A DNA stretch of 64,000 nucleotides from Candidatus Saccharimonadales bacterium (GTDB taxonomy: Bacteria > Patescibacteriota > Saccharimonadia > Saccharimonadales > UBA10212): the NCBI GenBank assembly GCA_049521895.1, contig JBEKOJ010000001.1, forward strand, positions 354,717 through 418,716, given 5' to 3'. The position numbers were made by a program, and so were the translations under genes. Of the stretch, positions 6,459-64,000 are shown piece by piece. The notes beneath the pieces are model-generated. The model searched no databases. It saw only the letters and a program-made list of their open reading frames with translations, and had not been told where the DNA came from. The stretch's first letter is position 1. Every line of letters begins with the position of its first letter.

Positions 6459-6463
6459 AAAGT

Positions 6464-6595
6464 GCTTATGCTTGGTGCAGTTAGTGGGTAAAAACTTACA
6501 CGCTATTAGGGATGAGATAGTTCGCTGGAGGAAGATTTTGGAAGTGCCGTATCAGGAGTACTTGTTGGGTAAGTAAGAGTTGGAAATTACACCGA
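6464..6595. repeat. intergenic repeat family, copy R-c
   Basis: GCTTATGCTTGGTGCAG...CGCTGGAGGAAGATTTTGGAAGTGCCGTATCAG...; first 14 nt equal the tRNA-Gly 3' end plus trailer. Confidence 0.7.
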
Positions 6596-7114: not shown

Positions 7115-7138
7115 GGCTATAGCATAGCAAAACTAACA

Positions 7139-7164
7139 GAAAAAGACCCCTTATCACAGAGGTC
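7139..7164 (-). terminator. intrinsic terminator at the end of repeat R-d
   Basis: Minus strand: GACCUCU-gugaua-AGGGGUC-UUUUU. Confidence 0.55.
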
Positions 7165-7169
7165 ATATT

Positions 7170-7304
7170 GCTTATGCTTGGTGCAGCAAGTAGGAAAATC
7201 TTTACACCTTATCAGGAATGAAATGGCTCGCTGGAGGAAGATTTTGGAAGTGCCGTATCAGAAGCATCTACTAGCTAAGTAGGAGTTGGGGGTTACACGA
7301 GTAG
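7170..7304. repeat. intergenic repeat family, copy R-d
   Basis: Aligns along about 135 nt with R-c, including a 34-nt perfect block CGCTGGAGGAAGATTTTGGAAGTGCCGTATCAG. Confidence 0.7.
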
Positions 7305-7318
7305 TAAGTGGTTCGATT

Positions 7319-7978
7319 CTATTGCTTATAGAAGGACTTAGCTATCAGTAAAGCGGTTTTAGCATCAGTCGAACTAAACCAACTATCTGCCTGAGTTGCC
7401 GTAAACTGTGTATTAGTATTGTCGTATGCCGCCAAAGATGCCGAGCTGCTCCCTGATGTGTAATCCAAGTACCCTACATTATCCGTTGTGCTACCGCTAG
7501 TTAATGAGTACTGCTGAATAAGTGTAGAATCTATCAGATAGTAAATCGGTGTATTTGTGGCAGTATAGTAGCCGCCAACCACCTTTAAGGCGGAATTGGA
7601 TTTTGCGAGCGAGTCAATACTTGTTGTATGGAAAGTCTGGGGTCCCCCAAAGTCAGATGAAGGATTAGAATACACTACCTGAACTGATTTTGATGGATTT
7701 TCGACTTGTGTATTAATAGAAACACCGCTTGTGAGCGTCCAATCCGACGGATACTGAAAACACTCTTTGGTACTTACATTGCAGTATGTTTTCCAGCCAG
7801 TATATGGATTCGCTTCAGTGGCCGCGGTCGCTGCACTTGTGCTGCTTGCAGTATTAAGAGTTTTGTCTGTGACGTTCTTAGTATGATAGACATACCATCC
7901 TATGAAACCTATCAAACCAATGATAATTACGATGAGCAATCCTTCGATTGCCCCGAATCCTTTTTGATTGTTTTTCAT
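7319..7978 (-). CDS. type IV pilin-like protein
   Basis: MKNNQKG/FGAIEGLLIVIIIGLIGFIGW: Gly-Phe site, Glu+5, hydrophobic helix. Confidence 0.7.
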   Translation of the reverse strand: MKNNQKGFGAIEGLLIVIIIGLIGFIGWYVYHTKNVTDKTLNTASSTSAATAATEANPYTGWKTYCNVSTKECFQYPSDWTLTSGVSINTQVENPSKSVQVVYSNPSSDFGGPQTFHTTSIDSLAKSNSALKVVGGYYTATNTPIYYLIDSTLIQQYSLTSGSTTDNVGYLDYTSGSSSASLAAYDNTNTQFTATQADSWFSSTDAKTALLIAKSFYKQ

Positions 7979-8017
7979 AAATCAATAGTACCAGAAATAT
8001 ACGAAAACACTTATGCT

Positions 8018-8094
8018 TGGTGCGGGTGACGGGACTCTAACCCGTGGCCTCTTCCTTGGCAAGGAAGCGCTCTAAACAACTGAGCTACACCCGC
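8018..8094 (-). tRNA. tRNA-Gly (anticodon GCC), atypical D- and T-loops
   Basis: GCGGGTG..CACCCGC-A-CCA, anticodon loop TTGCCAA; D-loop AGTTGTTTA lacks GG; T-loop is TTAGAGT. Confidence 0.8.
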
Positions 8095-8231
8095 GCTTTT
8101 GCCATTTGGCAAAAGCAATTATCAATTATCAATTTACATCTTTCAATGAATTATCAATGACTAATGCTCAATGAAAAGTTAATGACAAATGATAACTGCT
8201 AAATGTTAAATGCTTTGGCTTAGGCCAAAGC

Positions 8232-8307
8232 TGGTGGCGCCTCTCGGACTTGAACCGAGGACACAAGGCTCTTCAAGCCTCTGCTCTACCAACTGAGCTA
8301 AAGCGCC
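8232..8307 (-). tRNA. tRNA-Phe (anticodon GAA)
   Basis: GGCGCTT..GAGGCGCC-A-CCA fold, anticodon loop TTGAAGA, canonical GG D-loop, T-loop TTCAAGT. Confidence 0.85.
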
Positions 8308-8390
8308 TCGTCGGAACCGACGTTCGATTTCCATAAGCGCGTAAGAACTTGCTTACTTCCAACCTCAGGTCGTTCCCTCCTCTCAATTTT
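8308..8390 (-). other. conserved structured 5' leader (copy L2) abutting tRNA-Phe
   Basis: Sense: AAAATTGAGAGGAGGGAACGAC...GTCGGTTCCGACGA; about 75% identical to L1. Confidence 0.6.
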
Positions 8391-8471
8391 GCAAAGTATT
8401 GCTAAAACGGAACTTCGCAAAATTGTTAAGCTGCAAGAAATATTTTACGGGATTACCTCTGTTTATTCAAG

Positions 8472-8894
8472 TCATGTGGGCGGCCAGATAAAGTCTACGC
8501 AGGTTTTTATGGTCCCCTCGTCAGCAGCAAAATCTAGAGATAAAAATTCATCTCTGGTGACAAACTTGGCTGCTTTCATGTCGCCAAACTTGAAATCAGT
8601 GCTCTTAAGTTCAACTGGCATTGCCACGCGAAGTATCATCCAGCCGTGTACGCTTTTCCCGCGGTATATAAAGGCCACTTGGCCGATTTTTTCTACTTCA
8701 ACCCCTAGCTCTTTCATAATTTCACGCTTGAGACAATCTTCTATGGTTTCATCGTGTTCAAGCCCACCACCAGGTATCTCCCAACCAGTGTTGCTCTCCT
8801 CGCCTGCCCCGACTAGCAATTGCTGATGCTCATCTAGGATAATTGCCTTGATTGTGCCCCTGTAGAAGGGGCTAGGTAATTTGCTCAAGTCCAT
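8472..8894 (-). CDS. NUDIX hydrolase
   Basis: Nudix box GGGLEHDETIEDCLKREIMKELG. Confidence 0.8.
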   Translation of the reverse strand: MDLSKLPSPFYRGTIKAIILDEHQQLLVGAGEESNTGWEIPGGGLEHDETIEDCLKREIMKELGVEVEKIGQVAFIYRGKSVHGWMILRVAMPVELKSTDFKFGDMKAAKFVTRDEFLSLDFAADEGTIKTCVDFIWPPT

Positions 8895-49948: not shown

Positions 49949-52093
49949 TTATTCTAGCTTAACCAGCGGTGCGAAGGCGATATCCAACTTTTTTGTGCCC
50001 TTCCCCTTGAAATAAATTGTGGCAATATCGCCGTCTACATCTAAAACGGTACCAACGCCAAAAACTTGGTGCTTGATACCGTCACCTTCGTTCAATTCTG
50101 GTACGTATCTGGGCTCATCCACACCCAAGGCGCTATTTACGGAGATATCTGAGGACGTCGCAGTTGTTAGACCCTCCACATCGGCCAAAAACCGGCTGGG
50201 AGGATTAGATAAGCGGCCGCCATACAGTGTGCGACTGGTAGCATAAGTAAGATAAAGCTCTTCGCGCGCCCGGGTCATGCCGACGTACATTAGCCGGCGT
50301 TCCTCTTCCATCTCGGCCCCGTCATAAAGCGCCCGGCTGTGCGGCAAGACCGATTCCTCCAGGCCGGTGATAAATACCACCGGGAATTCCAGTCCTTTGG
50401 CCGAATGCAGTGTCATAAGAGTCACAAAATCACTACCAAAGTCAGTGTTATCGAGATCGGAAACCAGTGTAACTTCCTCTAGAAAACCTGCCAGGCCTAA
50501 ATCGCCATATTCGCTGGCAACGCTCAGTAGCTCACGCACGTTCTCAATGCGGGCTTCACCCTGCGGCGTGCCGTCCTGTAAAAAATGGAGGTAGTCCAGA
50601 CGTCTCAGCAGTCCGTCAATCAAAGCTGGAGGTGCCAGCTCATCTATCTGGGCCCTGAAGCTGGTAATAATATCAGCTAAATCTGTAAATCCCTGTTTCG
50701 CTTTAGATATCAAGCTATCGCACTCGGCAACTTTCGTAAGTCCCTCTAGCAGACTGTAGCCGTTCACCGCCCGGAAGGCATGGAAAACATCCAAGGATTT
50801 AGTTCCCAGCCCGCGCGACGGCACATTGACTATACGCTCGAAACTAACTGTGTCCTCTGGCTGATAGATCAACCTCAGATAGGCCATGATGTCCTTGATT
50901 TCTTTGCGGTCGTAAAAGCGCACTCCGCCGATGATGCGATACGGCAGTCCGTGATGTACGAACACCTCCTCGAGAGCCCGGCTCTGGGCGTTAGTACGAT
51001 AAAGTATTGCAAAGTCTTTAAAATTACGGGCTTTGATATCTACCGACATCTTGATATGCCTAACGATGCTTTCGGCTTCGGCGCGCTCGGAACTAACAGT
51101 TACTATCTGTACCGGTGAACCGGCTCCGGATGCGGTCCAGAGTTTTTTGTCGCTACGCTGCTGGTTGTGGGTTATCACGCTATGCGCGGCGTCTAAGATA
51201 TTTTTGCTGCTGCGGTAGTTTTGCTCCAGTTTAATAACCGTGCAGTTAGGATAATCTTTTTCAAAATTTAAGATGTTGCGGAAATCGGCCCCCCGCCAGC
51301 TGTAGATACTTTGCCAGTCATCGCCCACCACGGCGATGTTTTTATGCGGGCCGGTCAGCAATTTTACCAACTGGTACTGGGCGGCATTGGTGTCTTGGTA
51401 CTCGTCAACCATGACGTAGGCAAACTGTTTCTGCCAATGCTCGCGCAGCTTTTTTTGCGATTTTAGCATTGATACCGTGCGGGCAATCAAATCGTCAAAA
51501 TCCAGCGCCGAGGCTTCGTGCAAGGATTTTTCATAGGCCGGAAAAACTTTGGCAGCGGCAAGCTGCGCCGGACCGCTGGCAACTGAGGCAAATTCGGCTG
51601 ATCCCACCATCTCGTTTTTGGCAGCACTTATTAAACTGGCTAGTAGGCGCGCCGGGAAGCTTTTCTCGTCAATGTGCAAGTTCTTGGCCGCTTGTTTGAC
51701 GGCCGCCAATCGGTCCAGTTCATCCCAAATTACGAAGTTGCGCGGTATGCCCACGGCCTCGCCGTGCAGGCGCAGGATACGCACACAAATACTGTGGAAA
51801 GTCCCCATAAACGGCATGAAGCCGCGGTTGTCCGGATTATGCCCGGTGAGCTTAGCGATGCGCTGGCGCATCTCGCCGGCAGCTTTGTTGGTAAAGGTCA
51901 CAGCCAAGATATTAAACGGCGTAGCTTTGCCGCTGGCTAACAGGTAGGCAATCCGGTGGGTTAGGGTTTTGGTTTTACCACTGCCAGCACCGGCCAAAAT
52001 TAGCAATGGTCCCTCGGTAGTTTTAACCGCCCTTTGTTGCTCAGGATTTAGCCCTTTGAACAACTCCGCCTGACTGACGTTCTTAATTGGCAT
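49949..52093 (-). CDS. pcrA: ATP-dependent DNA helicase PcrA/UvrD
   Basis: Walker A AGAGSGKT, motif II VDEYQDTN, SF1 motifs throughout. Confidence 0.9.
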   Translation of the reverse strand: MPIKNVSQAELFKGLNPEQQRAVKTTEGPLLILAGAGSGKTKTLTHRIAYLLASGKATPFNILAVTFTNKAAGEMRQRIAKLTGHNPDNRGFMPFMGTFHSICVRILRLHGEAVGIPRNFVIWDELDRLAAVKQAAKNLHIDEKSFPARLLASLISAAKNEMVGSAEFASVASGPAQLAAAKVFPAYEKSLHEASALDFDDLIARTVSMLKSQKKLREHWQKQFAYVMVDEYQDTNAAQYQLVKLLTGPHKNIAVVGDDWQSIYSWRGADFRNILNFEKDYPNCTVIKLEQNYRSSKNILDAAHSVITHNQQRSDKKLWTASGAGSPVQIVTVSSERAEAESIVRHIKMSVDIKARNFKDFAILYRTNAQSRALEEVFVHHGLPYRIIGGVRFYDRKEIKDIMAYLRLIYQPEDTVSFERIVNVPSRGLGTKSLDVFHAFRAVNGYSLLEGLTKVAECDSLISKAKQGFTDLADIITSFRAQIDELAPPALIDGLLRRLDYLHFLQDGTPQGEARIENVRELLSVASEYGDLGLAGFLEEVTLVSDLDNTDFGSDFVTLMTLHSAKGLEFPVVFITGLEESVLPHSRALYDGAEMEEERRLMYVGMTRAREELYLTYATSRTLYGGRLSNPPSRFLADVEGLTTATSSDISVNSALGVDEPRYVPELNEGDGIKHQVFGVGTVLDVDGDIATIYFKGKGTKKLDIAFAPLVKLE

Positions 52094-52132
52094 GATCTAA
52101 TTCTAACAGATGTGGGTTAGCTGGTGGCGTAG

Positions 52133-53425
52133 CTATTGCTGGCTGCTGGTAGAACTTGTGCTAGCAGCAACCGTAATAGTCCCGAGCAGTGTCTTGATAA
52201 GGTTACCGTTGCTCATAGCCGTATCCTTGACGCGTACGACCGGCAAGCTGGTATTAGTAAGGTTTTTAGTATACAGATCTCCTAGTGCCGTACCGTCTGG
52301 AGCTTGGGTATTAAGTTCGACGATAGTACTGCTGTTCACAGTAGAAGCATCGGCAAGCGGCCCTTGGTCGCAAGTGATAGTTGAAGGCGTATCCACGCCA
52401 TCGTTAGTAGTAAAGTGCATCACCGACTTATAGAACTTATTGTCATTGGTGCCGGTGCACCATTTAAGATAATCGTAATACAATGCTGCCCGGGCAGCAG
52501 GCAGATATTTAGACGATGTGAAGGCTAGTTGTACACCCTTATTAGTGACAAAGCTGACTAGATAAGCGTATGCCCCATCGGACTGGTTGGCGCCGCCACG
52601 CTTACTAAACCCGGGGTCAGTGGTTATAGACGGTGTACCCCAAGTAGTAGGGTAATCAAAACTGACACCAGTGCTGCTCAGCGAATAGGCCGTAAAGCCG
52701 TCTGGTAAGCTTGACGGTGTGCCGGTACTCGGCGCAGTGGTTACAGGAACCGACGAGGGAGTTTGAGCTGGAGTGGTTTTACGCAACAGATAAAACGGTA
52801 AGCTGACAGATGTTTTGGCATCAAGCAGCGCGTATACACCAGCCAATACTATCAAGATTATTAAGATCCAGAGCCATTTTTTTCTCCTGCCTTTGGAGGT
52901 TTGGCTGCCGTGGTGCGACGATAGTGGCAAATCGCTGAAAGGAGCACCGCTGTCGGGCTGCGGTTCATCGGCCATTGGTGTGCCTGGCGCTGCCAGATCC
53001 GCCTCTTCATGTACGGGCTGCGGTTCAGCAGAATCTGGTTGTACAGTTTCATTCTGCGAATAAATAGCCGCTGGCTCCCCGTGTACGGGCATCTCTGCAG
53101 GTTGAGATTCCTCGGCAGATTCAGCCGGCAGAGAAGGCGATCCTTTAGAGTCTTCGAGCAGAGGTGTTTTCAGCTGGGCTACGTCATCGCTATGCTGCAA
53201 CAGAGGCATGGCTGACGGCTCATTATTATCTTCGACAGAAATTAGTACATGTGTTGGTTCGGGTGATTGTTTTAAATGCGCTGGTTCGTCGAGCCGGTCC
53301 TTAGTAACCATCGGGTCATTCATTATTGGGTGGTGGCCAACAATTATTGGTTTACTGGTAGCACTGGGGCTAGTCTTATGCGGTTTACTTACGTCAAACA
53401 CCCGGTCTTCGTCACCATAGGCCAT
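52133..53425 (-). CDS. bitopic membrane protein with acidic/Pro-rich cytoplasmic N-region, function unknown
   Basis: 430 aa, one TM (WLWILIILIVLAGVYALL), extracellular C-domain. Confidence 0.55.
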   Translation of the reverse strand: MAYGDEDRVFDVSKPHKTSPSATSKPIIVGHHPIMNDPMVTKDRLDEPAHLKQSPEPTHVLISVEDNNEPSAMPLLQHSDDVAQLKTPLLEDSKGSPSLPAESAEESQPAEMPVHGEPAAIYSQNETVQPDSAEPQPVHEEADLAAPGTPMADEPQPDSGAPFSDLPLSSHHGSQTSKGRRKKWLWILIILIVLAGVYALLDAKTSVSLPFYLLRKTTPAQTPSSVPVTTAPSTGTPSSLPDGFTAYSLSSTGVSFDYPTTWGTPSITTDPGFSKRGGANQSDGAYAYLVSFVTNKGVQLAFTSSKYLPAARAALYYDYLKWCTGTNDNKFYKSVMHFTTNDGVDTPSTITCDQGPLADASTVNSSTIVELNTQAPDGTALGDLYTKNLTNTSLPVVRVKDTAMSNGNLIKTLLGTITVAASTSSTSSQQ

Positions 53426-54205
53426 TTATTGTTCCTCCTTATTTCTTTGCCAGCGTCTGGCTTCATTTACAATTGACGCGAACTGATAATAATTCAAGCT
53501 CTCATGCCCTACTAAAAACCCATCAACGCCGTTTACGTCCAAGTAGCCATGGATTGATTCGGGCATTACCCCGCCGCCATATAATACTCGTAGATTTTTG
53601 GTCGCTTTCGGTCCGAACACGTCTCGCACATAGGCCCGTATATAGTCCACGGAGTTTTGGATTAGGTCCGGCTTGGCGATATTTTCTTCGCCGATCGCCC
53701 AAACCGGTTCGTAAGAGATAACCATAGTGCCGACTTCACCGGCCGTAAGATTGGAAAGCCCAGTCATCAACTGGTCGTGCAACACCTGCTTGGTTTCACC
53801 TTCCTCACGCTCGTGTTTGGTCTCGCCAACGCACAAAATCGGCATAATATCATTGCGCACCGCAGCGGCTACTTTGTCGCGGATCATATCAAGGTCCTCG
53901 TGAAAAATGTGTCGACGCTCGCTATGGCCAATAATTACATAGTGAACCAGCTCCCGCAGCATCGTGAAGCTTATCTCGCCCGTAAAGGCCCCTTCGTCAT
54001 GGAAGTAAGCGTTTTGCGCGGCTAGGCGAAATTTGCGGCGGTCAATTTGAATACTCAGTGGTTGCAACGTCAGCATGCTGGGCGCTAGAACTACTTCGAT
54101 GTCACGATGAATCATGATGCGTTCCTGTAAACGATGCAAGAGCAAACTAGCCTGAGAAGCATTTAGATACATCTTCCAGTTGCCGACTATTAGAATTCTT
54201 CGCAT
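53426..54205 (-). CDS. tpiA: triose-phosphate isomerase
   Basis: VGNWKMY, GHSERR, YEPVWAIG motifs. Confidence 0.9.
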   Translation of the reverse strand: MRRILIVGNWKMYLNASQASLLLHRLQERIMIHRDIEVVLAPSMLTLQPLSIQIDRRKFRLAAQNAYFHDEGAFTGEISFTMLRELVHYVIIGHSERRHIFHEDLDMIRDKVAAAVRNDIMPILCVGETKHEREEGETKQVLHDQLMTGLSNLTAGEVGTMVISYEPVWAIGEENIAKPDLIQNSVDYIRAYVRDVFGPKATKNLRVLYGGGVMPESIHGYLDVNGVDGFLVGHESLNYYQFASIVNEARRWQRNKEEQ

Positions 54206-54348
54206 ACTCTAGTCTCCTTTTGTCTGAGGAAAAGAGCAGCCCGAGCGTCGGATTCACTCCGCGCCCGGCGCGATGAGGAAAACCATAGGTTGTCTTCATA
54301 AGGCGAAGCCGCCATATTCCAGTTGCCGACTATTAGAATTCTTCGCAT
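54174..54348. repeat. 32-nt perfect direct repeat (54174-54205 and 54317-54348) duplicating the tpiA start, flanking a 111-nt insert
   Basis: TTCCAGTTGCCGACTATTAGAATTCTTCGCAT occurs twice; the insert has a GC-rich core flanked by TGAGGAAAA direct repeats. Confidence 0.8.
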
Positions 54349-54389
54349 GCTTCCACCCTCATAAACCTTACGCTTATTGTAGCATTCTT

Positions 54390-55697
54390 TTACTTATCCG
54401 GCAGCGCTTCAACGCCTGGCAGTTTATATCCGCTCATTAGATCCAAGCTGGCTCCGCCGCCGGTAGACACAAAGTTGAAGTCATCCAATAAGCCTTCGGA
54501 TTCCACGTAGGCCGCCGTGTCGCCGCCGCCAACTAAACTAAACGGTTTATTTTTGTCTTTATTGCCGCTGGCAATCATAGCTTCCACTATTATTCTGGTG
54601 CCATGGGCATAGGGGCTATGGGCTCCGGCTATGCCCTTTACTTCTGTCACTCCGCAAGGGCCGTTCCAGATCACAGTTTTGGCAAACTTCATCGCTCCGG
54701 CAATTTGCATGGCGCTTAATGGGCCGATATCCAAAATCATCTCTTCCGCACCCACGGTGTAGGCCTCGGGCGACGGCATTTTAGGGTAGGCTTCTATGTC
54801 AGCCAGACTATGGCTAGATAAGTCAACCACCCTGGTGGGCGCTGTGCCGTCCATGCTGGATGATACAACGGCGTCCAGCGGAACTAAGAAACTAAATGGC
54901 CGTTTCAGCGAGGTTGCGTGAGCATGCTCTAAGACTTCTTTAGCCGTATCTGCCGTCCCTGACTCTACCAAACTTCTACCCACCTTGATGCCCTGCGCCA
55001 GCAGAAAGTCGTTGGCCATAGCTCCGCCTATTGCCACGCAGTCGGCCAGATCAATCAAGCGATTCAAAAAGTCAATCTTATCGCTTATTTTAGCGCCGCC
55101 TATTACGGCCATTAGTGGGTGCTCGGGCTTTTCCATTACCTTAGTAATGGTTTCAACCTCATCGGCTAGCAACAGCCCGGCGGCGGATGGCAGCAATTTA
55201 GTAATAGCGTTAGTTGAGGCATGCGCCCGGTGGACTACGCCAAATCCATCTTGCACGAAAACCTGCGCCTCGGCGGCAGTCACTACCTGCTTAGCAAACG
55301 TCTTGTCGTCGTTTTCTTCCCCAGCATGGAAGCGTAGGTTTTCAAACATCAGGACTTCACCGGCTTTTAGTTCGCTGGCCAGTTTTTTAGCCGCATCCCC
55401 GACGCAGTCTGGTGCAAATTTTACTTCTTGGCCCAATAGCTCGCTGAGGTGTTTGGCAACCGGCTTAAGGCTCAAATTTTTGTCGCTGGAGCCTTTTGGC
55501 CTGCCGAGATGTGAGATTATCACCAAGCTCGAACCCAGTTGCTTTAAGATATACTTCACGGTTGGCAGCGATCTCTTCATACGGTAGTCATCAGAGATAA
55601 CCCCGTTTTCTACAGGCACGTTATAGTCGGCCCGCAGCAATACGCGCTTGCCTTTCAAATTTATATCTTTGACGGTTTTTTTATTAAACAAAGCCAC
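54390..55697 (-). CDS. pgk: phosphoglycerate kinase
   Basis: RADYNVP N-terminal motif plus a C-terminal GGGDT and STGGGA pattern. Confidence 0.9.
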   Translation of the reverse strand: MALFNKKTVKDINLKGKRVLLRADYNVPVENGVISDDYRMKRSLPTVKYILKQLGSSLVIISHLGRPKGSSDKNLSLKPVAKHLSELLGQEVKFAPDCVGDAAKKLASELKAGEVLMFENLRFHAGEENDDKTFAKQVVTAAEAQVFVQDGFGVVHRAHASTNAITKLLPSAAGLLLADEVETITKVMEKPEHPLMAVIGGAKISDKIDFLNRLIDLADCVAIGGAMANDFLLAQGIKVGRSLVESGTADTAKEVLEHAHATSLKRPFSFLVPLDAVVSSSMDGTAPTRVVDLSSHSLADIEAYPKMPSPEAYTVGAEEMILDIGPLSAMQIAGAMKFAKTVIWNGPCGVTEVKGIAGAHSPYAHGTRIIVEAMIASGNKDKNKPFSLVGGGDTAAYVESEGLLDDFNFVSTGGGASLDLMSGYKLPGVEALPDK

Positions 55698-55762
55698 CCT
55701 TTTTCATAAAGCTTACGCTGTTATAAGTATGTCAAGATTAATGACTAAATACCAGGAGATCA

Positions 55763-55837
<75 letters not shown>

Positions 55838-56086
55838 TCGACCACTTTACATTTTACATTTTACAGTTCACATTGCATACAGAATTCAAGGGTTATTCTG
55901 GATACCAAAAATCCCTTGCTGCTATCTCCACCATAGCCCACAAGGGATTTACTGGTTATTTCAATTTTTATTTTGGATCGGAGCGGTCAGTCAGTGCTCT
56001 GGTTCCTAAAATTAACCCTAGCACATTTAGACGTTTTTCTCAACCTGTTATCCACAGGTTTAGCTTTATTTAAAACGCTGCGCGCT

Positions 56087-56257
56087 CGAAACTAGCAGAC
56101 TCGAGCGTAGTACAAGGCGCAAGCGCGGAGCGCAAAGGAAACGTATTGAAATACGTTGACTGCGCCCCACAGCTTGCAACGATGTAATGCGCCGAGAGCA
56201 TTACCCGGTGTGCCTGGCTAAGCCGGGCAGCAGGGGGAATGCGGTCTGTTAGTTTCG
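56087..56257 (+). ncRNA. candidate structured RNA, family copy C3
   Basis: P1 CGAAACUAGCAGAC/GUCUGUUAGUUUCG; P2 GGCGCA/UGCGCC; P3 ACGUAUU-gaa-AAUACGU; GUAAUGC-gccgaga-GCAUUAC; UGCCUGGC-uaa-GCCGGGCA. Confidence 0.55.
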
Positions 56258-56935
56258 GCGGCGGCGGTTAACGACGTAGTGCCCAACTGCACCGAGTCCG
56301 GAAGCACCGACGAACAATTCAGCTACATCGCCAGGACCAGTGTTAGGCAAGGCTGTAGATTTGGTAACAGCAGCCGGAGTAACAATTGGTTTTGCTGGTG
56401 TGACCGGTGCAGGACAGCTAACTTTGGCTTTAAAGTTCACAAACTCTACCGTAGAACCGGCCAGGTTGCCTACATTCACACCACTAGTTGTAATAGTGTC
56501 AGGTAAAGTCCTGATGACAGCACCACTACCATTGTAAAGTGTAGTTGTACCGTTTTCGTAGACTAAGTTCCCGTTAGACACACCATTTACCGTAACGCTA
56601 CCGGAAGCACCAGCGCTAGCACCTTCCGCGGGTGTAGCTGTGGCGGTAGAGGTGCTTGCAGCACCGCTAGGCAGTGTAGCGTTAACTACAAGGCTCGTAA
56701 GACCACCGAAGGCGCCGTTGTGAAGGTCAATACTGTATTGGACTTCTTCGTTGCAGGCAGCGCTGGCAGAAGCGCCGTAGCTACCACTTTGTGTAATGTT
56801 TTTTACGACGTAGAAATTAGAACCGCTGAGCAGCTGACCAGGACTATCTGCAAAAACTGGAGATAGACCAAAGACAGCCATAGCAAGGACAGTGAAGCCG
56901 GTCGTAAGAGCGGCTAGTTTAGATTGAATTTTCAT
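56249..56935 (-). CDS. LPXTG-anchored surface protein
   Basis: Signal peptide, then C-terminal LPNTG, hydrophobic segment and RRRRN sorting signal. Confidence 0.8.
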   Translation of the reverse strand: MKIQSKLAALTTGFTVLAMAVFGLSPVFADSPGQLLSGSNFYVVKNITQSGSYGASASAACNEEVQYSIDLHNGAFGGLTSLVVNATLPSGAASTSTATATPAEGASAGASGSVTVNGVSNGNLVYENGTTTLYNGSGAVIRTLPDTITTSGVNVGNLAGSTVEFVNFKAKVSCPAPVTPAKPIVTPAAVTKSTALPNTGPGDVAELFVGASGLGAVGHYVVNRRRRN

Positions 56936-57135
56936 ATATCAATCCCCTTTCTTATAGGTTAATTACTTGTGCGCAAACTAGATAGTTATTGGGTTTTAGA
57001 TTTATGGTCTAACGACCGACGAAAATCTTTCACTACGAGCCTTAGCCTAAGCCAAGAGTTGTTACTAAATTTCCGCCGGTCGGAGGGGCGGCTCGCGCGT
57101 ACGCGAGCCGTCCCAAGAACGAACCGACTACTACT

Positions 57136-59001
57136 TCACGGATGCACGTCCGGGTCGTGGATCGGGAACGGGGTGGTCGCGCTCACAGCCAGGACGGCTG
57201 AGTTCGTAACGTCCGTTACCGTCACCGTGTAGGTGTCGTTGCCGCCCGGCGGAATTTCCGTCGGAGCGACGTAGTTGCACGGCGCGTACACACGGTTGTA
57301 GCCCGCCGACGTGAACGTCGTCGAGGCCAAGCACGTGAAGTGCCCGTAGGACGTGCTGAACACCACCGTGATCGTGTCGCCACTCGGCGAGTACACGTCA
57401 CAGTAGAGATTGGCATACTGCTGCCCGACCGCATCCTCCTCCGGCTGGTAGCAGTTGTTGATCAGCATCGTCGGCGTCGGAGGAGACGGCGGCGAAGCTA
57501 CCGAGCAGCTGACACTCGCCTCAGCCGAAGCCAAGGCAAGCGCGTACGCTGCTGCATACGCTTCTGCATAGGTCGTCGCCTCAGCTGAGGCTGTTGCCGA
57601 GGCCGAGGCCGTCGTGCCATCAGAACACGACGCTGAAGCCGTAGCAGTAGCCGTCGCCGAAACAACAATTACCGGCGGCGGAGCCGTTACCGTCTTGCGG
57701 TTGACGAACGGAAACGTGTACGTCTCGCCCGCAACCGCGGTGTGCGTGATGCACGTCTGGTCGGGCGTGTATCCGCCCGTTGACGTCTCACACTCTTGGA
57801 CGACAGCTCCGGCGTTGAACGTACCGAGATCCCGCGACTGGCCGCTGGCGGCGTTCGTCGTGGACGACGTTGCCGATCCGTTGACCGATTGCGAGAACCC
57901 GAACTCACCGCCGTTGAGCGTGACCTGCGTACCGTTCAGGTACGCCGTCTTGCCAAGCAACAGGTGAGCCGTTGGCGTCGGCGGCGGAGCCGTTACCGTC
58001 TTGCGGTTGACGAACGGAAACGTGTACGTCTCGCCCGCAACCGCGGTGTGCGTGATGCACGTCTGGTCGGGCGTGTATCCGCCCGTTGACGTCTCACACT
58101 CTTGGACGACAGCTCCGGCGTTGAACGTACCGAGATCCCGCGACTGGCCGCTGGCGGCGTTCGTCGTGGACGACGTTGCCGATCCGTTGACCGATTGCGA
58201 GAACCCGAACTCACCGCCGTTGAGCGTGACCTGCGTACCGTTCAGGTACGCCGTCTTGCCAAGCAACAGGTGAGCCGTTGGCGTCGGCGGCGGAGCCGGT
58301 CCGCACTTGAGCGTGACCCAGGACTTGACGTGCAGGGAAACCTTCTCCCTCAGCTTGAGGTCCAGGGAACCCTGGACCTTGCCCCAGGTGGTTGCACGAG
58401 TGAAGCCGGAAACCGTCGTTGTCAACACGCCGCTTACCTTCTGCCCCGAGGGGCATGTGATGGAAACGGGCTTGCTGAGCTTGCGGTTGAACCGGATGAC
58501 CGTGCCCTTGCTGAATGGCTTCCAGGGAAGGACGACGACCGAGACCGAAGGCTTGAGGCGCGGATTTCCGCACCTGACCATCAACTCGACCGTCTTCTGG
58601 CTCACGATGTTGATCATGAGAAAGACCTTCACGTACTGGCTGCCGTTGTGGTCAGCAACTGGCACGACTGTTCCGCCGCCTGTGATGCCCGAGTTCGTAC
58701 TGCCCGGGGACGCATGGGGTGCGTAGCCCTCAGCACGATATTCGGACAGAACGAAGTCCGGACGATCCGCCTGCTGGGCGATAGTCATCGCGTAGCTCGG
58801 ATCCCAGGCTGCACGACCTTCGACTTGCTGCAGCGCGTGCTGCGGGTTGTTGGGGTCGATGCCGTTCGGGAACGGTCGGTACAGGTTCACCGAGGCGTTA
58901 ACCTTGGTGATGGAGTTAGTGCTGGCGAGCGCGGGGCTCGCGATCATGAGGAACGCCCCGACCACAATGGCCGGGACGCTAAGACTACGCATGACGCGCA
59001 T
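57136..59001 (-). CDS. secreted adhesin-like protein with two identical Cna-B/SpaA-like repeats, high-GC codon usage
   Basis: Start at MRVMRSLSVPAIVVGAFLMIASPALA (signal peptide); 102-aa unit (..LNGGEFGF..VQECETSTGGYTPD..) repeated twice; Cys-bounded Ala/Ser/Thr tract; no LPXTG. Confidence 0.7.
   Translation of the reverse strand: MRVMRSLSVPAIVVGAFLMIASPALASTNSITKVNASVNLYRPFPNGIDPNNPQHALQQVEGRAAWDPSYAMTIAQQADRPDFVLSEYRAEGYAPHASPGSTNSGITGGGTVVPVADHNGSQYVKVFLMINIVSQKTVELMVRCGNPRLKPSVSVVVLPWKPFSKGTVIRFNRKLSKPVSITCPSGQKVSGVLTTTVSGFTRATTWGKVQGSLDLKLREKVSLHVKSWVTLKCGPAPPPTPTAHLLLGKTAYLNGTQVTLNGGEFGFSQSVNGSATSSTTNAASGQSRDLGTFNAGAVVQECETSTGGYTPDQTCITHTAVAGETYTFPFVNRKTVTAPPPTPTAHLLLGKTAYLNGTQVTLNGGEFGFSQSVNGSATSSTTNAASGQSRDLGTFNAGAVVQECETSTGGYTPDQTCITHTAVAGETYTFPFVNRKTVTAPPPVIVVSATATATASASCSDGTTASASATASAEATTYAEAYAAAYALALASAEASVSCSVASPPSPPTPTMLINNCYQPEEDAVGQQYANLYCDVYSPSGDTITVVFSTSYGHFTCLASTTFTSAGYNRVYAPCNYVAPTEIPPGGNDTYTVTVTDVTNSAVLAVSATTPFPIHDPDVHP
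57673..58299. repeat. perfect 306-bp tandem duplication (2 copies plus about 15 bp)
   Basis: 57673-57978 equals 57979-58284; the alternate-frame ORFs at 57687-57908 and 57993-58214 are letter-identical. Confidence 0.9.
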
Positions 59002-59451
59002 CTTTAGCACTTCCCTTCTGTGATCGGGGACAAGAAAGCACAGCACCAGCCGATCGAACCGGTGCTGTGCGACCACCCCCAAGAAACAGGGGCGGAATAA
59101 TCTAATGACGAGGAGTTCGTCACCAAATTACTCCGCCCATTGCTTAGAAGGATTATGACCGCGCAACACGGAATGATCAGTTTGAAAATTGGTAGTCGGT
59201 TAAGGACTTACTTTGCTTGCGAGCCAAAAAGCTCTAGCAAAAACAAAATAAAGCCCAATAACTATCTAGCTTGCCTGTAAACAAAATCTTTTGTTTTTAG
59301 ACAAACTTACTAATTTGTTAAGGTTATCACCTCACCCACTACTGCTTCCGAAAGGGTTACTTATCTGTTACCCCTCCGTAAGAGATTCTTGCCCAGTTCT
59401 TATCTGTAAGAGCTGCGACCCACCTCTTCGCTGTCAAGCGAGGATGCCCAT

Positions 59452-59480
59452 ACTCTACCACTATACTTGAAGTATGTCAA
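59452..59480 (-). promoter_or_regulatory. strong sigma70-type promoter TTGACA-17-TGgTAGAGT pointing toward the right IR and adhesin gene
   Basis: -35 TTGACA (reverse complement of 59475-59480), 17-nt spacer, extended -10 (reverse complement of 59452-59460). Confidence 0.6.
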
Positions 59481-59646
59481 TATGTTTATGCTATATTATT
59501 TAGCCAAGCACAAGAGCTTTGATTTACAAATTCAGCCTAAAAAATTAAGATCCACCCAAATGTTTGAGCGGGCAACGCCGGTTAGCGCCAATGACAAGAA
59601 ATTGTTAGTGAGCGCAGAAAATCAAATCTTAATTTACGCTTTTGCT

Positions 59647-61068
59647 TTAGCCTGTTCTTTTACTTCTGGGGAAACTGAAGCCAAACATGCTTCCCTCGCC
59701 CTCCGTGCTCTTAAAGATGATTGCTCCCCCCTGGGCTACTATCACCTTTTTAGCCATATACAGCCCCAACCCCGTGCCATCAGGCCGCATTTTTCTAGCA
59801 TTGTCTGCCCGGTAAAACTTAGTGAATAGACGATGCTGCATACTCTTGGGCACGCCTATGCCTGTATCGGTCACCGTATAACTAACTTCTTTATCCGTCA
59901 TCGCCAGATCGGCTGTAACGCTTCCGCCTTTGGGGGTGTAGTAGATGGCGTTATCTATAAAGTTCATCACCACTTGCCGTATCTTAGTCTCGTCCAGCTC
60001 AAGTACCGGAAAATTATCGGGTTTGTGGTAAGTAAGCTTAATCTGTTTGTTGGCCGCCTGTTCATTAAACTGGCTGACTTCGCTTCCAACTACCTCTGCC
60101 AGATTAGTGGGTCTATTTTCTATGACAAATTTGCCGCTTTGTAAACGGGAGACATTGAGCAGGTCAGCTATCAGGTAGACCATGCGGTTAGCGCCATCAA
60201 AGGCATGCTGCATTAGTTCTTTCTGCTGTTTCTTGACAACCCCTGTATCCCCATCAAGTATCATGCTTAGATAGCCTTTGACGGTCGTCAGAGGTGTTCT
60301 GAGCTGGTGGCTGGCCATGCTAATAAACTCATCCTTGGTCTTATCCAGCTCCCGCAATCGAATATTGACTTTACGCAATTGGGCCAGCACTTGCTGATTC
60401 TCCTCAAACAGCATTTTGTTATCAAAAGCCACGCCAACAGCTTCGCCCAACCTGTTAAGCAGCATAGAGTCAAATTCTTCCAAATCGGCCAAGGGGTGCA
60501 GGAAGCCAGTAGCCATAATACCTACCAATTTCTGACGGGTTTGTAGTTTTACTAAATATAAAGAATGGAGGGGTAATTTTAGGCGTATTTCCTCAACTTG
60601 TTCTTCTGTCGTGTGGAGTATACGACCAAGGCGTTTATTGGGGTGGCTATCCAGCTGTATAAGTTTGTTCTTTTTATCAGAGCGGAACCAGTCCATGTTG
60701 ACATTAATACGTAATCCAGATGAGTCGGGTAAGCTATTATCTATACCGGTTATCTTCTTGATGCCCAGCCCATAGATTTCCAACTCGCGAGGAAAGTGCT
60801 CGGAGTATCCCATTAAAGCCACAAAGGGGTAGTCAGTTAACTCGACTATGGAGTTAGCTATTTGGCTACTAAGTTCTTTTAGGGTGGATTGGGAACTAAG
60901 AACGAGGTTATCAATAGTCCTTAAAAGTGACAGGATACGGTTAGTGTCGGCTAACTCCTTATTGCGGCGATACATCTCCTGGGTAATATGCTCCAGGTCC
61001 CGCTCCAATTGTTTTTTACGCCCAAAGGTATGCTTAAGAGGTTTGGCTTGGGCTTCTTTCACCGCCAT
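59647..61068 (-). CDS. cytoplasmic sensor histidine kinase
   Basis: H-box SHQLRTPLT, N-box, G-boxes DTGIGV and GTGLGL; GAF-like N-region; no TM segment. Confidence 0.85.
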   Translation of the reverse strand: MAVKEAQAKPLKHTFGRKKQLERDLEHITQEMYRRNKELADTNRILSLLRTIDNLVLSSQSTLKELSSQIANSIVELTDYPFVALMGYSEHFPRELEIYGLGIKKITGIDNSLPDSSGLRINVNMDWFRSDKKNKLIQLDSHPNKRLGRILHTTEEQVEEIRLKLPLHSLYLVKLQTRQKLVGIMATGFLHPLADLEEFDSMLLNRLGEAVGVAFDNKMLFEENQQVLAQLRKVNIRLRELDKTKDEFISMASHQLRTPLTTVKGYLSMILDGDTGVVKKQQKELMQHAFDGANRMVYLIADLLNVSRLQSGKFVIENRPTNLAEVVGSEVSQFNEQAANKQIKLTYHKPDNFPVLELDETKIRQVVMNFIDNAIYYTPKGGSVTADLAMTDKEVSYTVTDTGIGVPKSMQHRLFTKFYRADNARKMRPDGTGLGLYMAKKVIVAQGGAIIFKSTEGEGSMFGFSFPRSKRTG

Positions 61069-61086
61069 ACGCTACTCCATCCCAAT

Positions 61087-61368
61087 TTAAGCTACTAAAG
61101 TTTTTGGTAGCTCATTTTGGGGTAATTGATCAATCAGGGAGCTTGCCGCTTCGCGGCAGACTTCGACGGAAACACGTCCAAAAATTTTCTTGTATTGTTC
61201 TACTAAGTCATCGATAACCTTAGTGCCGTTACCAGACACGGTAACATGGTGCTTATCCCAATCTAGTTTCAGGTTATGGACATGCTGAGCTTGTTCAATC
61301 GCCACTGGACCTATAATAGACTCCTGGTGTTTAATAATTTGCTCGACTATCTGTGAATAAACGTCCAT
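61087..61368 (-). CDS. small hypothetical protein between the membrane protein and the kinase
   Basis: 93 aa from MDVYSQ; the start overlaps the upstream stop. Confidence 0.45.
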   Translation of the reverse strand: MDVYSQIVEQIIKHQESIIGPVAIEQAQHVHNLKLDWDKHHVTVSGNGTKVIDDLVEQYKKIFGRVSVEVCREAASSLIDQLPQNELPKTLVA

Positions 61369-61369
61369 A

Positions 61370-62209
61370 TCAGACTCGCCCCGGTGACCCAATGGACTTT
61401 GCTCGAGAACGCAACTCGCTATACGTCATATAAAACTTGATCATCGCGGCGGTCATTACGAAATAGGATATGAAGTAAAACAAGTCGTCAAATTGACCCC
61501 CTAAGTACGTGCCCCTATTGCTCTGGTACAGGAATGTAAAATCAGATATGTATTGCAAGAATAGTGCCAGCATAACCACTATGATTCCAGCCCTCATAAT
61601 TCCTCCTAGCAGTTTTCTAGACAATAAATACGCGGTAATAGCCAAGGAAATGTAAGTAGCGTCACCTATGGGATAGCCAAGATCCAGAAAAACCGTGAGA
61701 GGCTTATGCCAGTCATATTGATGATTGTGTAAAAATACCCAATAAGAAATTGCCAGTAATATAGCGGGGACCAGAATAGCTATAATCTTATACCTGTTAG
61801 TTTTAAGCGAGAATTTAACTCCAGCTGCTTTGGCCAAAAAAACTCCTCCACAGATATACGACAGCGTGCTACCAAAATAAGCCACATCACCCCAGGAAGG
61901 GTAAGGAATCTGTATTTTGGAAACGTAGTTATAGTAGGTGAATATAAGCTGCCCGGCTTCTTGGGCAAAAAGCCCTAAAGCGAAAAACATCAGAGCTTTT
62001 CCGAGAACTGTTCTAAACCCTCCCCACTGGCGTGCGGTAATAAAACCGATGATCGCCCCTACCAAGGCCATAAGGCCATAGGTGTAGCCAAAGCGCTGCA
62101 CCGACAAGCCTTGGTTATGCACGACTGATTGGAAACTTATCCACCAGACAAGATAGGCAAGAAAAAATAATGTTATAAGTATCTGAAGTTTGTTTTTTAG
62201 TATACTCAC
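61370..62209 (-). CDS. polytopic membrane protein (about 8 TM), possible sensor partner of the kinase
   Basis: 279 aa, strongly hydrophobic, first gene of the three-gene minus-strand unit. Confidence 0.55.
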   Translation of the reverse strand: MSILKNKLQILITLFFLAYLVWWISFQSVVHNQGLSVQRFGYTYGLMALVGAIIGFITARQWGGFRTVLGKALMFFALGLFAQEAGQLIFTYYNYVSKIQIPYPSWGDVAYFGSTLSYICGGVFLAKAAGVKFSLKTNRYKIIAILVPAILLAISYWVFLHNHQYDWHKPLTVFLDLGYPIGDATYISLAITAYLLSRKLLGGIMRAGIIVVMLALFLQYISDFTFLYQSNRGTYLGGQFDDLFYFISYFVMTAAMIKFYMTYSELRSRAKSIGSPGRV

Positions 62210-62312
62210 CCTGTTTTTATTATCCCTGCCGGAAAACTGATGTCAAGGATGTAAACATAAGCATCTCTATACGTTTTGCATACGCTGGGGCGCGTTTTAT
62301 ACTTTAAATCAG

Positions 62313-63239
62313 ATGACTTTACCCGACTTTCCGATGTTCGCTAAGCTCAGTCTTGAAGATAAGGAAGATTATAACAAGCTCATTAGGGGATTCCCGCCTT
62401 TTTCGGACATCTCTTTTACCAACCTGCATATCTGGTGGAACTTGGACGGCCGCTTGTCTGCTTCTATCCTGAACCAAAACCTAGTACTCAATTACCGCCT
62501 GCCTTTCGATAAAGAAAATTCTGGCTACGGTCTAGTCGGCAACCACAACATAGACGAGTCAATCCAAACAATATTTGTCTACCTGCGCCAACAAGGAAAA
62601 CCAGTCAAACTAGTCCATATACCGGAATTCGTGGTCGAAAAAATCACGGATATATCGAAGCTGGATATAGTAGAAGAGTTGGACTTCCATGAATATATTA
62701 TGAGTAGTCAAGACCTAGCTAGACTGGAAGGCAGCGGCCATGCCTATAACAGGAAAAAGGTTAAACGTTTCATAAGAGAAACGCAAAATAAAAAAATTCA
62801 AATAAAAAGTCTTGGTTTGTCTTCTGAGGAAAACACACACCTGATATTGGCCTCTTTCCATGATTGGCAGAAGAAATTCGCTGACAAGAACGACCCTAAA
62901 CGCACCGAGAACTTGGCAATCGAAAGAACATTGACCCATTCCCAAGCGCTCGAAACTAAGAATCTATGTCTATTTATTGACGGAAAGCTTAGCGGATTTG
63001 CTCTTTATCACCTGACGATAGATAAACAGTATTATATAGTTAACCATCTCAAGGTCGATTACAGTATTCCGCGTATGTATGACTACCTTACTAATCAGTT
63101 AGCAATTAAAGCCGCTGATGAAAATGTGCCCTTTCTTAATATAGAGATGGATTTAGGGATCGAGGGGCTGAGAGAACACAAGATGGGCTTACGGCCAATT
63201 AGATTTAATAAAAAATATACTGTAAAGCCGCTAAACTGA
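62313..63239 (+). CDS. DUF2156-like (lysyl-phosphatidylglycerol synthase C-terminal/GNAT-fold-like) protein
   Basis: 308 aa; N-terminal pattern (SFTNLHIWW) recalled from this family; low certainty. Confidence 0.45.
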   Translation: MTLPDFPMFAKLSLEDKEDYNKLIRGFPPFSDISFTNLHIWWNLDGRLSASILNQNLVLNYRLPFDKENSGYGLVGNHNIDESIQTIFVYLRQQGKPVKLVHIPEFVVEKITDISKLDIVEELDFHEYIMSSQDLARLEGSGHAYNRKKVKRFIRETQNKKIQIKSLGLSSEENTHLILASFHDWQKKFADKNDPKRTENLAIERTLTHSQALETKNLCLFIDGKLSGFALYHLTIDKQYYIVNHLKVDYSIPRMYDYLTNQLAIKAADENVPFLNIEMDLGIEGLREHKMGLRPIRFNKKYTVKPLN

Positions 63240-64000
63240 AAGTTGTCTAAAATTAATTGTTCCTAAACCCTTACCCATCGAGTAGTCTATCCGTAGTTTA
63301 AATTTGTGTGGTCCTGCTACTGGGTCTATGTAGAGTATTTTTGGCCCATTAAAGGCATTGGTCGCACCAAGCAATACACTAGAGGTCAAATGTGCCATTC
63401 CGCTCAGCTCAATACCGTTAGCCTGCTTGCCGGCCGGTATGTCAATATCCAGTGTTACATCTACGTCGGGGCTGACTATCTGAGATTGAAAATCAAAATA
63501 GCCTAGGCTTTGGGGCTCGGTAATATCTTGCTTTTTTACCTGCTCCCAGCCGTTTTTGGCATCTGAATAGTACGGCCAATCGTGCATGGGGGCCATTATT
63601 TTATAACCATAAAAAGAATTATCAATATCTACCAGCTTTATGAAAGTTTCGTAGCCAGCCGGCAAAACTTTGGTTTTTCCGCCTATTACCCCTTTGCGCC
63701 GGAGTTCGTTCATCACCTTTAGCTGCATCTCTTCCAGGAGGCCGGTCTCGATGATTTCAGCCAGGACCACATCTGCATTCATTGGTAACTTGACCTGTAG
63801 GGCATCGCCTTCTACTATCTCAATAATATCTTCTAAGGAATTTGCCCTGACGCTCTGCCTGAGTGATTCCGCCAAAAAATGGTCAATTTCGACTGCATAG
63901 ACTTTCTTAGCGCCGGCCTCGGCAGCAAAAAAAGCTAAAATACCCGAACCGGAACCGATATCTACAGTTATGTCGCCCGGTTTTACGGTTTCTAGAATCG
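63231..64000 (-). CDS. class I SAM-dependent methyltransferase (PRMT-like), 5' end outside the window
   Basis: The frame stays open to the window edge: ...GDITVDIGSGSGILAFFAAEAGAKKVYAVE (motif I); beta-barrel-like C-domain. Confidence 0.65.
   Translation of the reverse strand, partial: ILETVKPGDITVDIGSGSGILAFFAAEAGAKKVYAVEIDHFLAESLRQSVRANSLEDIIEIVEGDALQVKLPMNADVVLAEIIETGLLEEMQLKVMNELRRKGVIGGKTKVLPAGYETFIKLVDIDNSFYGYKIMAPMHDWPYYSDAKNGWEQVKKQDITEPQSLGYFDFQSQIVSPDVDVTLDIDIPAGKQANGIELSGMAHLTSSVLLGATNAFNGPKILYIDPVAGPHKFKLRIDYSMGKGLGTINFRQLSV

Follow-up and report, generated by a model that had tools for sequence, protein, structure and literature searches.

An in-frame, likely copy-number-variable duplication of a CnaB-like domain in a putative surface protein of soil Saccharimonadales

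Surface proteins that carry copy-number-variable, DNA-identical tandem domain repeats are already known in bacteria, and include SasG/Aap, Rib/alpha C and Sgo_0707. These variable-length proteins are grouped as Periscope proteins, and intragenic recombination between their identical repeats is the proposed mechanism of length change (Whelan et al., 2021; PMC8201768). A comparable arrangement is found in a minus-strand gene at positions 57136-59001 of a 64,000-nt stretch of DNA from a Candidatus Saccharimonadales bacterium (the window, to whose positions all window coordinates refer), in which two identical 306-nt units, each encoding one CnaB-like domain, follow one another within the coding sequence of a secreted modular protein of 621 aa. 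The explanation that best accounts for the observations, with a probability of roughly two in three (0.68), is a genuine in-frame duplication of a CnaB-type module that varies in copy number in a secreted surface protein of soil Saccharimonadales, in a Periscope-like manner.

The locus shares several features with Periscope proteins: the tandem repeats are identical at the DNA level, each consists of one folded domain and a short Pro-containing linker, a conserved N-terminal domain precedes the array, and the number of repeats varies between near-identical genomes, which here means between assemblies with one or two units. It differs from them in that the variation involves just one versus two units and not long arrays, in that the repeat is a CnaB-like domain outside any Pfam family, in that the window protein lacks LPXTG or a recognisable anchor while its neighbour alone has LPNTG, and in its host, which is an uncultivated soil member of the Saccharibacteria (Candidate Phyla Radiation, CPR) and not a cultured pathogen. 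Periscope proteins form a rod projecting a functional N-terminal domain; in the present protein, of which one unit was modelled, such a geometry is putative. What is new is the lineage (Saccharibacteria, from soil metagenomes), the domain and the minimal one-versus-two state on identical flanks, and the locus most likely represents a familiar variable-length surface-protein trick that is met here in another lineage, and not a novelty in principle. In literature searches, no publication turned up that deals with pilins, isopeptides or sortase substrates of Saccharibacteria or with phase variation at loci of this kind.

The repeat is perfect. Tandem Repeats Finder, applied to 50000-64000, detects a single array at 57673-58298 (period 306, 2.0 copies, 100% matches, 0 indels, score 1252), and direct string comparison shows that 57673-57978 and 57979-58284 agree letter for letter, which bears out the perfect 306-bp in-frame tandem duplication described in an earlier sequence-only reading of this DNA. 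A chance origin of a perfect repeat of 306 nt can be excluded. The two units correspond to codons 240-341 and 342-443 of the minus-strand gene, 102 codons each and in frame, and the junction between them reads ...GTTGGCGT directly followed by CGGCGGCGGAGCCGTTACCG.... The identity had also been thought to run about 15 bp into a third unit; this run-on exists, its length being 14 nt (58285-58298, CGGCGGCGGAGCCG) with base 58299 differing. In the one-copy allele described below, this sequence (coding strand CGGCTCCGCCGCCG) constitutes a 14-nt direct repeat on either side of the lone domain. Open reading frames (ORFs) in alternate frames on the plus strand (e.g., 57614-57967) are repeated as well, as had been noticed before, only because the underlying DNA is duplicated. 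The features of the repeat are as follows.

57136-59001, minus strand: gene for the 621-aa secreted modular protein (ORF list and translation)
57979-58284, minus strand: repeat unit, first copy by gene orientation, codons 240-341; CnaB-like beta-sandwich plus APPP linker
57673-57978, minus strand: repeat unit, second copy, covering codons 342-443; it matches the first at 100% and is missing from one-copy alleles
58285-58298, minus strand: 14-nt microhomology, coding strand CGGCTCCGCCGCCG, belonging to the ...APPP linker; it also opens the units, at 57979-57992 and 57673-57686

The evidence for variation in copy number comes from other assemblies that contain the same locus. A protein of 519 aa (P0002) equals the window protein minus exactly one unit (102 aa), and two further forms of 516 and 544 aa (P0030 and P0031) differ from it in the called start only. 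This one-unit protein occurs on 12 contigs from ENA and JGI sources (three for P0002, eight for P0030 and one for P0031), P0002 bearing a JGI source label besides that of ENA. The four one-unit contigs that were read, all from MEGAHIT, are 100% identical to the window over all of the shared flank on either side of the repeat, which extends over 9.9-16.6 kb (16.6 kb without a mismatch in L001), and have one unit fewer. They include L001, L002 and L004 (of 478,895, 30,475 and 745,315 bp), which carry the MEGAHIT label 'k141' and come from the ENA assemblies ERZ27250189, ERZ27250017 and ERZ27249952, respectively. The two-unit form is also present in a 769,618-bp contig (L003) of an independent JGI assembly (3300038418), which is 100% identical to the window over 16,865 nt; this dataset is listed among JGI soil metagenomes (bioRxiv 10.1101/2024.12.20.629349).

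An additional line of evidence is provided by the places at which contigs end. On five JGI contigs the called gene comprises the C-terminal 110 aa only, and three of these five, each from a different JGI sample (L005, L006 and L007), start at 57799, at a distance of exactly 127 nt from the final repeated base (57673), and another JGI contig (L008) starts exactly at the first repeated base. A contig whose first 127 bases are the final ones of the repeat has the appearance of an edge that leaves a branch vertex in a de Bruijn graph with k = 127 (as in SPAdes and the JGI pipeline). On this reading, reads in the samples with broken contigs would support both the passage from the unit to the downstream flank and that from unit to unit. 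MEGAHIT, for its part, emits unitigs and by design would be expected to break at loops rather than to traverse or collapse them; since the one-unit locus lies in the middle of the 745-kb MEGAHIT contig, junction reads were presumably absent or rare in that sample. The unit-to-unit junction is therefore real, the duplication very likely is too, and alleles with one and with two or more units very probably coexist, the 'two' units of the window being a lower bound. A natural copy-number polymorphism is the likely interpretation of these sequences, and the ongoing copy-number variation suggested earlier is favoured both by the occurrence of one- and two-unit alleles on identical flanks and by the contig breaks at the repeat boundaries. 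No protein with zero, three or four units was present among the search hits or in the two cluster memberships. A scan of public metagenome contigs for the unit-to-unit junction gave no match and is uninformative, since an internal 31-mer of the unit was absent from them too. As a separate observation, L006 differs from the window by 66 substitutions, all within 1.7 kb of the PGK and TIM genes (53348-55062), and is identical to it elsewhere. This patch has the look of a recombination tract of foreign origin or of an assembly that mixes strains.

Structural modelling indicates what is being duplicated. The AlphaFold2 model of one unit (mean predicted local distance difference test score, pLDDT, 93.8; predicted template modelling score, pTM, 0.81) is all-beta, with strands spanning residues 5-97 of 104 and disordered Pro-rich ends, and according to this model one repeat unit is one complete beta-sandwich domain of ~93 residues plus a linker. 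The view of each unit as one 102-aa Pro-flanked domain, put forward from the letters of the DNA, is confirmed by this model. In a Foldseek comparison with the PDB, nearly all matches are CnaB-type domains from pilins and pilus adhesins of Gram-positive bacteria, the top ones without exception (E 1e-4 to 1e-2; query-normalised template modelling, TM, scores 0.58-0.65); among them are Spy0125/Cpa (2xic; E 1e-4, TM 0.63), SpaC (6m3y), GBS52 (3phs), Spy0128 (3gld), RrgB (2x9w), PitA/PitB, SpaA and the B. anthracis TIE protein. The isopeptide-bond triad of CnaB domains consists of a first-strand Lys, a last-strand Asn and a Glu. In an alignment of 17 domain copies from homologues, numbered according to the modelled unit, three residues never vary, namely K12 on the first strand and N95 on the last (K251 and N334 of the 621-aa protein) and C65, whereas E66 (central strand), D75 and C78 do so rarely; by analogy, the unit may have an intradomain Lys-Asn isopeptide bond. 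The unit thus resembles CnaB-type pilin domains in its fold and in the Lys/Asn/Glu arrangement, and is unlike them in its low sequence identity to the fold matches (12-19%), its sub-threshold Pfam matches and its extra conserved Cys pair, C65/C78.

In sequence, this domain seems to stand apart from described families. The window unit has no Pfam match above the gathering threshold, its sub-threshold matches being SpaA_4, DUF7601, DUF5979 and SpaA_2, and it has no significant sequence match in the PDB. Among the 17 family domains the best E values are 0.011 for SpaA_4 (seven members) and 3e-4 for DUF7601 (four members), all of them sub-threshold; only the three domains of P0007, taken together, reach 41.8 bits for DUF7601. 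An exhaustive HMMER search of 1.84 billion representatives retrieved 26 proteins at E <=1e-3, a few of which are spurious repeat proteins, and the domain family is therefore small. Relatives contain one to three domain copies per protein, in tandem as well as dispersed, with 32-100% identity between copies. A scan of GTDB genomes with the unit alignment, through an automatically chosen peptide pattern, gave no confirmed locus, while the alignment of the N-terminal domain did yield loci.

The protein in which the units reside is encoded within an ORF at 57136-59082 of the minus strand. Translation probably begins with the ATG at 59001, for a product of 621 aa, and the next ATG, at 58992, gives the 618-aa NCBI product MGA3150417.1 (ABSD10_02260; P0001 in our set), a hypothetical protein that matches exactly and that originates from a 776,545-bp contig of a Candidatus Saccharimonadales metagenome-assembled genome (MAG). 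From the N-terminus, the modules are a signal peptide, an N-terminal domain of ~210 aa, the two units, an Ala/Thr/Ser-rich module bounded by Cys residues and a C-terminal module of ~110 aa, with Pro-rich linkers between all of them. No Pfam or NCBIfam family recognises the whole protein at curated cut-offs, and no NCBIfam family was assigned to its neighbours or paralogues either. These modules and the downstream gene are located as follows.

58924-59001, minus strand: signal peptide, MRVMRSLSVPAIVVGAFLMIASPALA then S, read off the translation; the N-termini of homologues likewise end ALA-S
58297-58923, minus strand: conserved N-terminal domain, aa 27-235, ending ...KCGPAPPP; 36-81% identity across 11 homologues
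57469-57672, minus strand: Ala/Thr/Ser-rich module between Cys residues, aa 444-511 (translation)
57136-57468, minus strand: C-terminal module of ~110 aa, MLINNCYQ...PFPIHDPDVHP, and stop codon (translation)
56249-56935, minus strand: gene lying downstream, which encodes a secreted protein of 228 aa; its C-terminus has LPNTG, then a hydrophobic stretch and RRRRN (sortase-substrate type)

The AlphaFold2 model of the N-terminal domain is of moderate confidence (pLDDT 67.6) and shows a helical hairpin and three strands of ~20 residues, for which the PDB holds no significant fold match (best E 0.085, TM <=0.18); a weak resemblance to beta-hairpin proteins in their pore state was dismissed on these values (E >=0.085, TM <=0.18). 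The equivalent of the Ala/Thr/Ser-rich module in P0004 matches Pfam DUF5977 (E 2.6e-6), and the type of C-terminal module found here also closes the homologues P0007 and P0036 and a 355-aa protein of contig L015. A profile search also revealed a similarity between the C-terminal third of the N-terminal domain (aa ~165-238, 58288-58509, ...ITCPSGQKV...LKCGPAPPP) and the aa 444-511 module (57469-57672, ...SCSDGTT...VSCSVASPP). Read from the translation, the C-terminus of the protein (...TPFPIHDPDVHP) has neither an LPXTG sorting signal nor a transmembrane anchor. The 228-aa LPNTG protein, which has a weak DUF11 match only, bears the sole LPXTG-type tail in the window, and its gene adjoins the family gene, downstream of the cassette formed by the latter, in all loci examined (the window and contigs L010-L015). 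The simple regular expression T-[LIVM]-x-[TS]-C, applied without a profile search, found no sortase motif in ORFs >150 aa of the 64-kb window, whose remaining genes are of the housekeeping type (PGK, TIM, a UvrD-type helicase, a histidine kinase, tRNAs and tmRNA).

Four traits, namely a signal peptide, a stalk domain of the pilin type, linkers rich in Pro and the conserved LPNTG gene downstream, allow the protein to be read as a surface protein similar to fibrillar adhesins. The terms 'adhesin-like' and 'stalk', used for it on first reading of the sequence, are reasonable in view of the signal peptide, the CnaB/pilin-type fold and the LPNTG neighbour, binding being a putative function. With fibrillar adhesins and sortase-anchored proteins of the MSCRAMM type (microbial surface components recognizing adhesive matrix molecules), it has in common the signal peptide, an N-terminal non-repeat domain, beta-sandwich stalk modules, Pro-rich linkers and an adjoining LPXTG-type gene, and it is unlike these proteins in having no C-terminal sorting signal and no known adhesive domain, with no sortase motif in the window. 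Its surface location, the role of the units as a stalk and any adhesive function are putative, and control of the stalk length of an adhesin is, by analogy, plausible.

In the proposed mechanism, slippage or unequal exchange between the two 14-nt copies of CGGCTCCGCCGCCG that flank the lone domain would produce an exact duplication, including the 14-nt beginning of a 'third unit'. Once two 306-nt units are present, homologous unequal recombination or replication slippage could add or remove whole domains, always in frame, and one-unit and two-or-more-unit alleles would then exist side by side in one nearly clonal natural population. The copy number would determine how far the conserved N-terminal domain lies from the C-terminal module. 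The one to three domain copies per protein among relatives, and a second locus with gain or loss described below, support the idea of a habitual process in this family. The recombination step is suggested by the arrangement of the repeats, and the one-copy MEGAHIT contigs probably mirror true one-copy genomes.

Several points weigh against this interpretation. The copy number of either allele is an indirect estimate from short-read assemblies, and assembler and allele are partly confounded, in that the readable one-unit contigs are all from MEGAHIT and the readable two-unit or broken contigs are all from JGI, the source label of P0002 being the only sign of a one-unit protein from a JGI assembly. 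Moreover, the ENA and JGI assemblies could share samples, and the two copies may represent the minimal traversal of a loop, the true number possibly being higher. On the side of function, the protein itself lacks a sorting signal, the window a sortase motif and the N-terminal domain a recognisable adhesive fold, and the adhesin stalk is drawn by analogy; with one and two domains as the only states seen, the functional effect of a change in length is likewise putative.

The first alternative to be considered is that all cells have the same number of units and that the difference is an artefact of assembly, the one-unit contigs being collapsed or the second unit arising from loop traversal. The separation between MEGAHIT k141 contigs with one unit and JGI contigs that have two units or break at the repeat is what such an artefact would predict, a perfect 306-nt repeat exceeds any short-read k-mer, and the 100% identity of the flanks would be natural if the assemblies stemmed from the same or sister samples. 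However, a junction can be assembled only from junction k-mers in the reads, and evidence for it is present in at least five JGI samples and in the NCBI MAG. MEGAHIT, as mentioned above, is expected to break at a loop, yet the one-unit locus lies in the middle of contigs of 478,895 and 745,315 bp, and the one-unit P0002 has a JGI source label as well. Finally, a similar gain or loss is seen at an unrelated locus entirely in JGI assemblies. On balance, an assembly artefact is an unlikely explanation.

This other locus, of a Saccharimonadales-like organism, encodes the homologues P0007 (764 aa) and P0017 (575 aa), whose flanks are 99.8-99.9% identical. The difference between the two alleles, represented by contigs L015-L018 and L019-L022, respectively, amounts to exactly 567 nt and is located between perfect repeats of 290 nt, and this gain or loss is observed wholly within JGI assemblies.

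L015-L018 5048-5337 and 5615-5904: the 290-nt perfect repeats of the sister locus (compared with L019-L022)

In L018, which is 3.4% divergent overall from L015, the same single substitution, at offset 62, is present in both 290-nt copies, so that these stay 100% identical to one another. This shared substitution is a case of concerted evolution, and as a result zero divergence by itself is no proof of a recent duplication. In the window, a recent gain or loss is the simplest reading of the one-unit allele on identical flanks; the very recent duplication that had been offered, along with ongoing copy-number variation and an assembly artefact, as an explanation of the zero divergence does not follow from that identity alone. 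A separate observation on the same two contigs is that over 4001-8500 two adjacent high-GC cassettes show 1-6 substitutions per 500 nt, versus 15-79 per 500 nt in the flanking genes, which suggests a recent exchange between strains or an unusual constraint.

A second alternative is that of a single, very recent and effectively neutral duplication that became fixed in one sub-lineage, with neither ongoing change nor a selected role for length. It would account for the zero divergence between the units and for the presence of only one- and two-unit forms among the hits and in the two clusters, and the 14-nt microhomology suffices for a single event. Against it stand the one- and two-unit alleles on identical flanks (16.6 kb in L001), which make the event younger than any other mutation there or else recurrent, the contig breaks at the repeat boundary in four JGI samples, which show that the junction sequence is present, and the relatives, which repeatedly have duplicated domain copies, tandem and dispersed, at 48-100% identity, and include a second locus with gain or loss. 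A neutral one-off of this kind is decidedly unlikely. An old duplication whose units are kept identical by gene conversion, for which the shared offset-62 substitution in the still-identical copies of L018 offers a precedent, is very improbable, since the one-unit allele on identical flanks in the population of the window is most simply a recent gain or loss, and it is compatible with a variable domain number as proposed here, altering only the inferred age.

Saccharibacteria are ultra-small episymbionts that are obliged to attach to host bacteria, and to our knowledge their attachment and surface variation are largely unknown. In this context, the locus is a concrete and testable candidate: a secreted protein whose number of pilin-like stalk domains differs within one almost clonal natural population. 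If confirmed by long reads, it would extend the variable-length Periscope surface proteins to the CPR. It would also mean that metagenome assemblies can reveal variation of this kind, by way of contigs that break off at exact k-mer distances from the repeat ends. It carries a warning as well, namely that the domain copy number in the deposited MAG is a lower bound and that different assemblers gave differing gene lengths for one organism.

The gene also stands out from its surroundings by composition and by the elements that flank it. It has 62.7% GC and a GC content at third codon positions (GC3) of 0.79, versus 41-51% and 0.41-0.58, respectively, for the genes next to it. In five other Saccharibacteria MAGs, the homologous genes lie 8-21 GC points above their flanks, and the excess is a property of the family and not of a one-off transfer. 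Recent horizontal transfer was accordingly rejected as a sufficient cause of the high GC, which is in excess at all five homologous loci and here resides mainly in third codon positions. An inverted repeat of ~26 nt, with a core CAAACTAGATAGTTAT followed by ..G..CTTTAA, moreover flanks the gene in eight cassettes from seven genomes whose proteins are 31-84% identical, and is present at all five GTDB loci and in both cassettes of L015. Its arms and the other elements of the cassette are the following.

59249-59274, no strand assigned: inverted repeat, upstream arm, 26 nt, 248 nt upstream of the ATG; 0 chance matches expected
56973-56998, no strand assigned: inverted repeat, downstream arm, 138 nt past the stop codon and 38 nt before the ATG of the LPNTG gene
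L010 5671-5697 and 7321-7347: inverted-repeat arms of a homologous cassette
L011 5575-5602 and 7571-7598: inverted-repeat arms of a homologous cassette
L012 2497-2523 and 4087-4113: inverted-repeat arms of a homologous cassette
L013 5719-5742 and 7290-7313: inverted-repeat arms of a homologous cassette
L014 92-107 and 1697-1712: inverted-repeat arms of a homologous cassette
L015 3829-3858 and 6407-6436, then 6677-6704 and 7984-8011: inverted-repeat arms of two homologous cassettes
59452-59480, minus strand: promoter-like site found by consensus scan ~450 nt upstream of the ATG, reading TTGACA, 17 nt, TG-n-TAGAGT; its function is putative
59038-59137, minus strand: two strong leader hairpins (59137-59091 and 59070-59038), with stems of 20 and 14 pairs and a U-rich tract after each, shortly ahead of the ribosome-binding site

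Changes specific to one locus appear in both arms together (L013, L014 and the first cassette of L015, L015a), and in six of the eight cassettes the 5' arm has GGG where the complement of the 3' arm has T. A recombination site, a pair of operators and a 5'/3' RNA panhandle are the candidate roles of the inverted repeat. Pure pairing between the 5' and 3' ends of the RNA was rejected, as the differences between the arms are not consistently pair-preserving (GGG versus T in the same six of eight). An independently mobile transposon bounded by the inverted repeat is not supported, as the LPXTG gene is kept beside the cassette at all loci and the conserved promoter lies outside the repeat, and frequent inversion between the arms was discarded, as the inverted orientation occurs in none of the contigs compared. 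In viral contigs, the 16-mer core of the repeat gave 12 single matches and no pairs, which by our own estimate is roughly the chance level.

Each cassette has a promoter-like site ~190 nt ahead of the left inverted-repeat arm, and the site is conserved in an alignment of the window with L010, L011 and L012; in L015, the promoter region is duplicated with each cassette. Its distance of ~450 nt from the ATG would result in a long leader that contains the upstream arm. This leader is conserved and seems to be structured: a hairpin with the sequence CCTCGC...GCGAGG is followed by the left inverted-repeat arm, then by a CCCATAACCGACTAC box and lastly by the two strong hairpins. A local stem pairs the left arm with the CCCATAACCGACTAC box, with A-U/U-A covariation apparent by eye, and a complementary GTAGTCGG box directly follows the stop codon in each cassette. 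The leader has no Rfam match, and RNAalifold gives a weak consensus for five leaders (-2.5 kcal/mol).

A broader possibility, which we consider rather unlikely, is that the duplication is one event of a dedicated, lineage-specific system of surface-protein diversification built of promoter/leader/inverted-repeat/high-GC3 cassettes, the inverted repeat being a new cis element. In such a system, the Pro-linker microhomologies would serve as joints for the duplication and shuffling of domains, and the inverted repeat might act as a site of recombination or transposition, as an operator pair or as a 5'/3' panhandle for RNA processing.

Three further observations concern the contigs compared. In L015, two full cassettes, each made up of promoter, leader, inverted-repeat arm, ORF and second arm, stand in tandem at positions 3600-8750, with one LPXTG-type gene after them. 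Of the two ORFs, the second (6851-7918, 355 aa) contains the C-terminal module of the family and no CnaB-like unit, and the deposited gene call, which is on the other strand (6746-7981), seems to be an error. In L009, a 1,216-bp MEGAHIT contig, an unrelated sequence at positions 1-231, by eye perhaps FtsW/RodA-like, is joined to window 57610-56626 at a GGCCTCGGCCTCGGC stretch, and this contig is probably a chimeric assembly. Finally, positions 2077-2131 (minus strand) of L013, a Saccharimonadales MAG contig, match the type III hammerhead ribozyme below threshold (44.7 bits versus a gathering cut-off of 48.5, E 1.3e-6).

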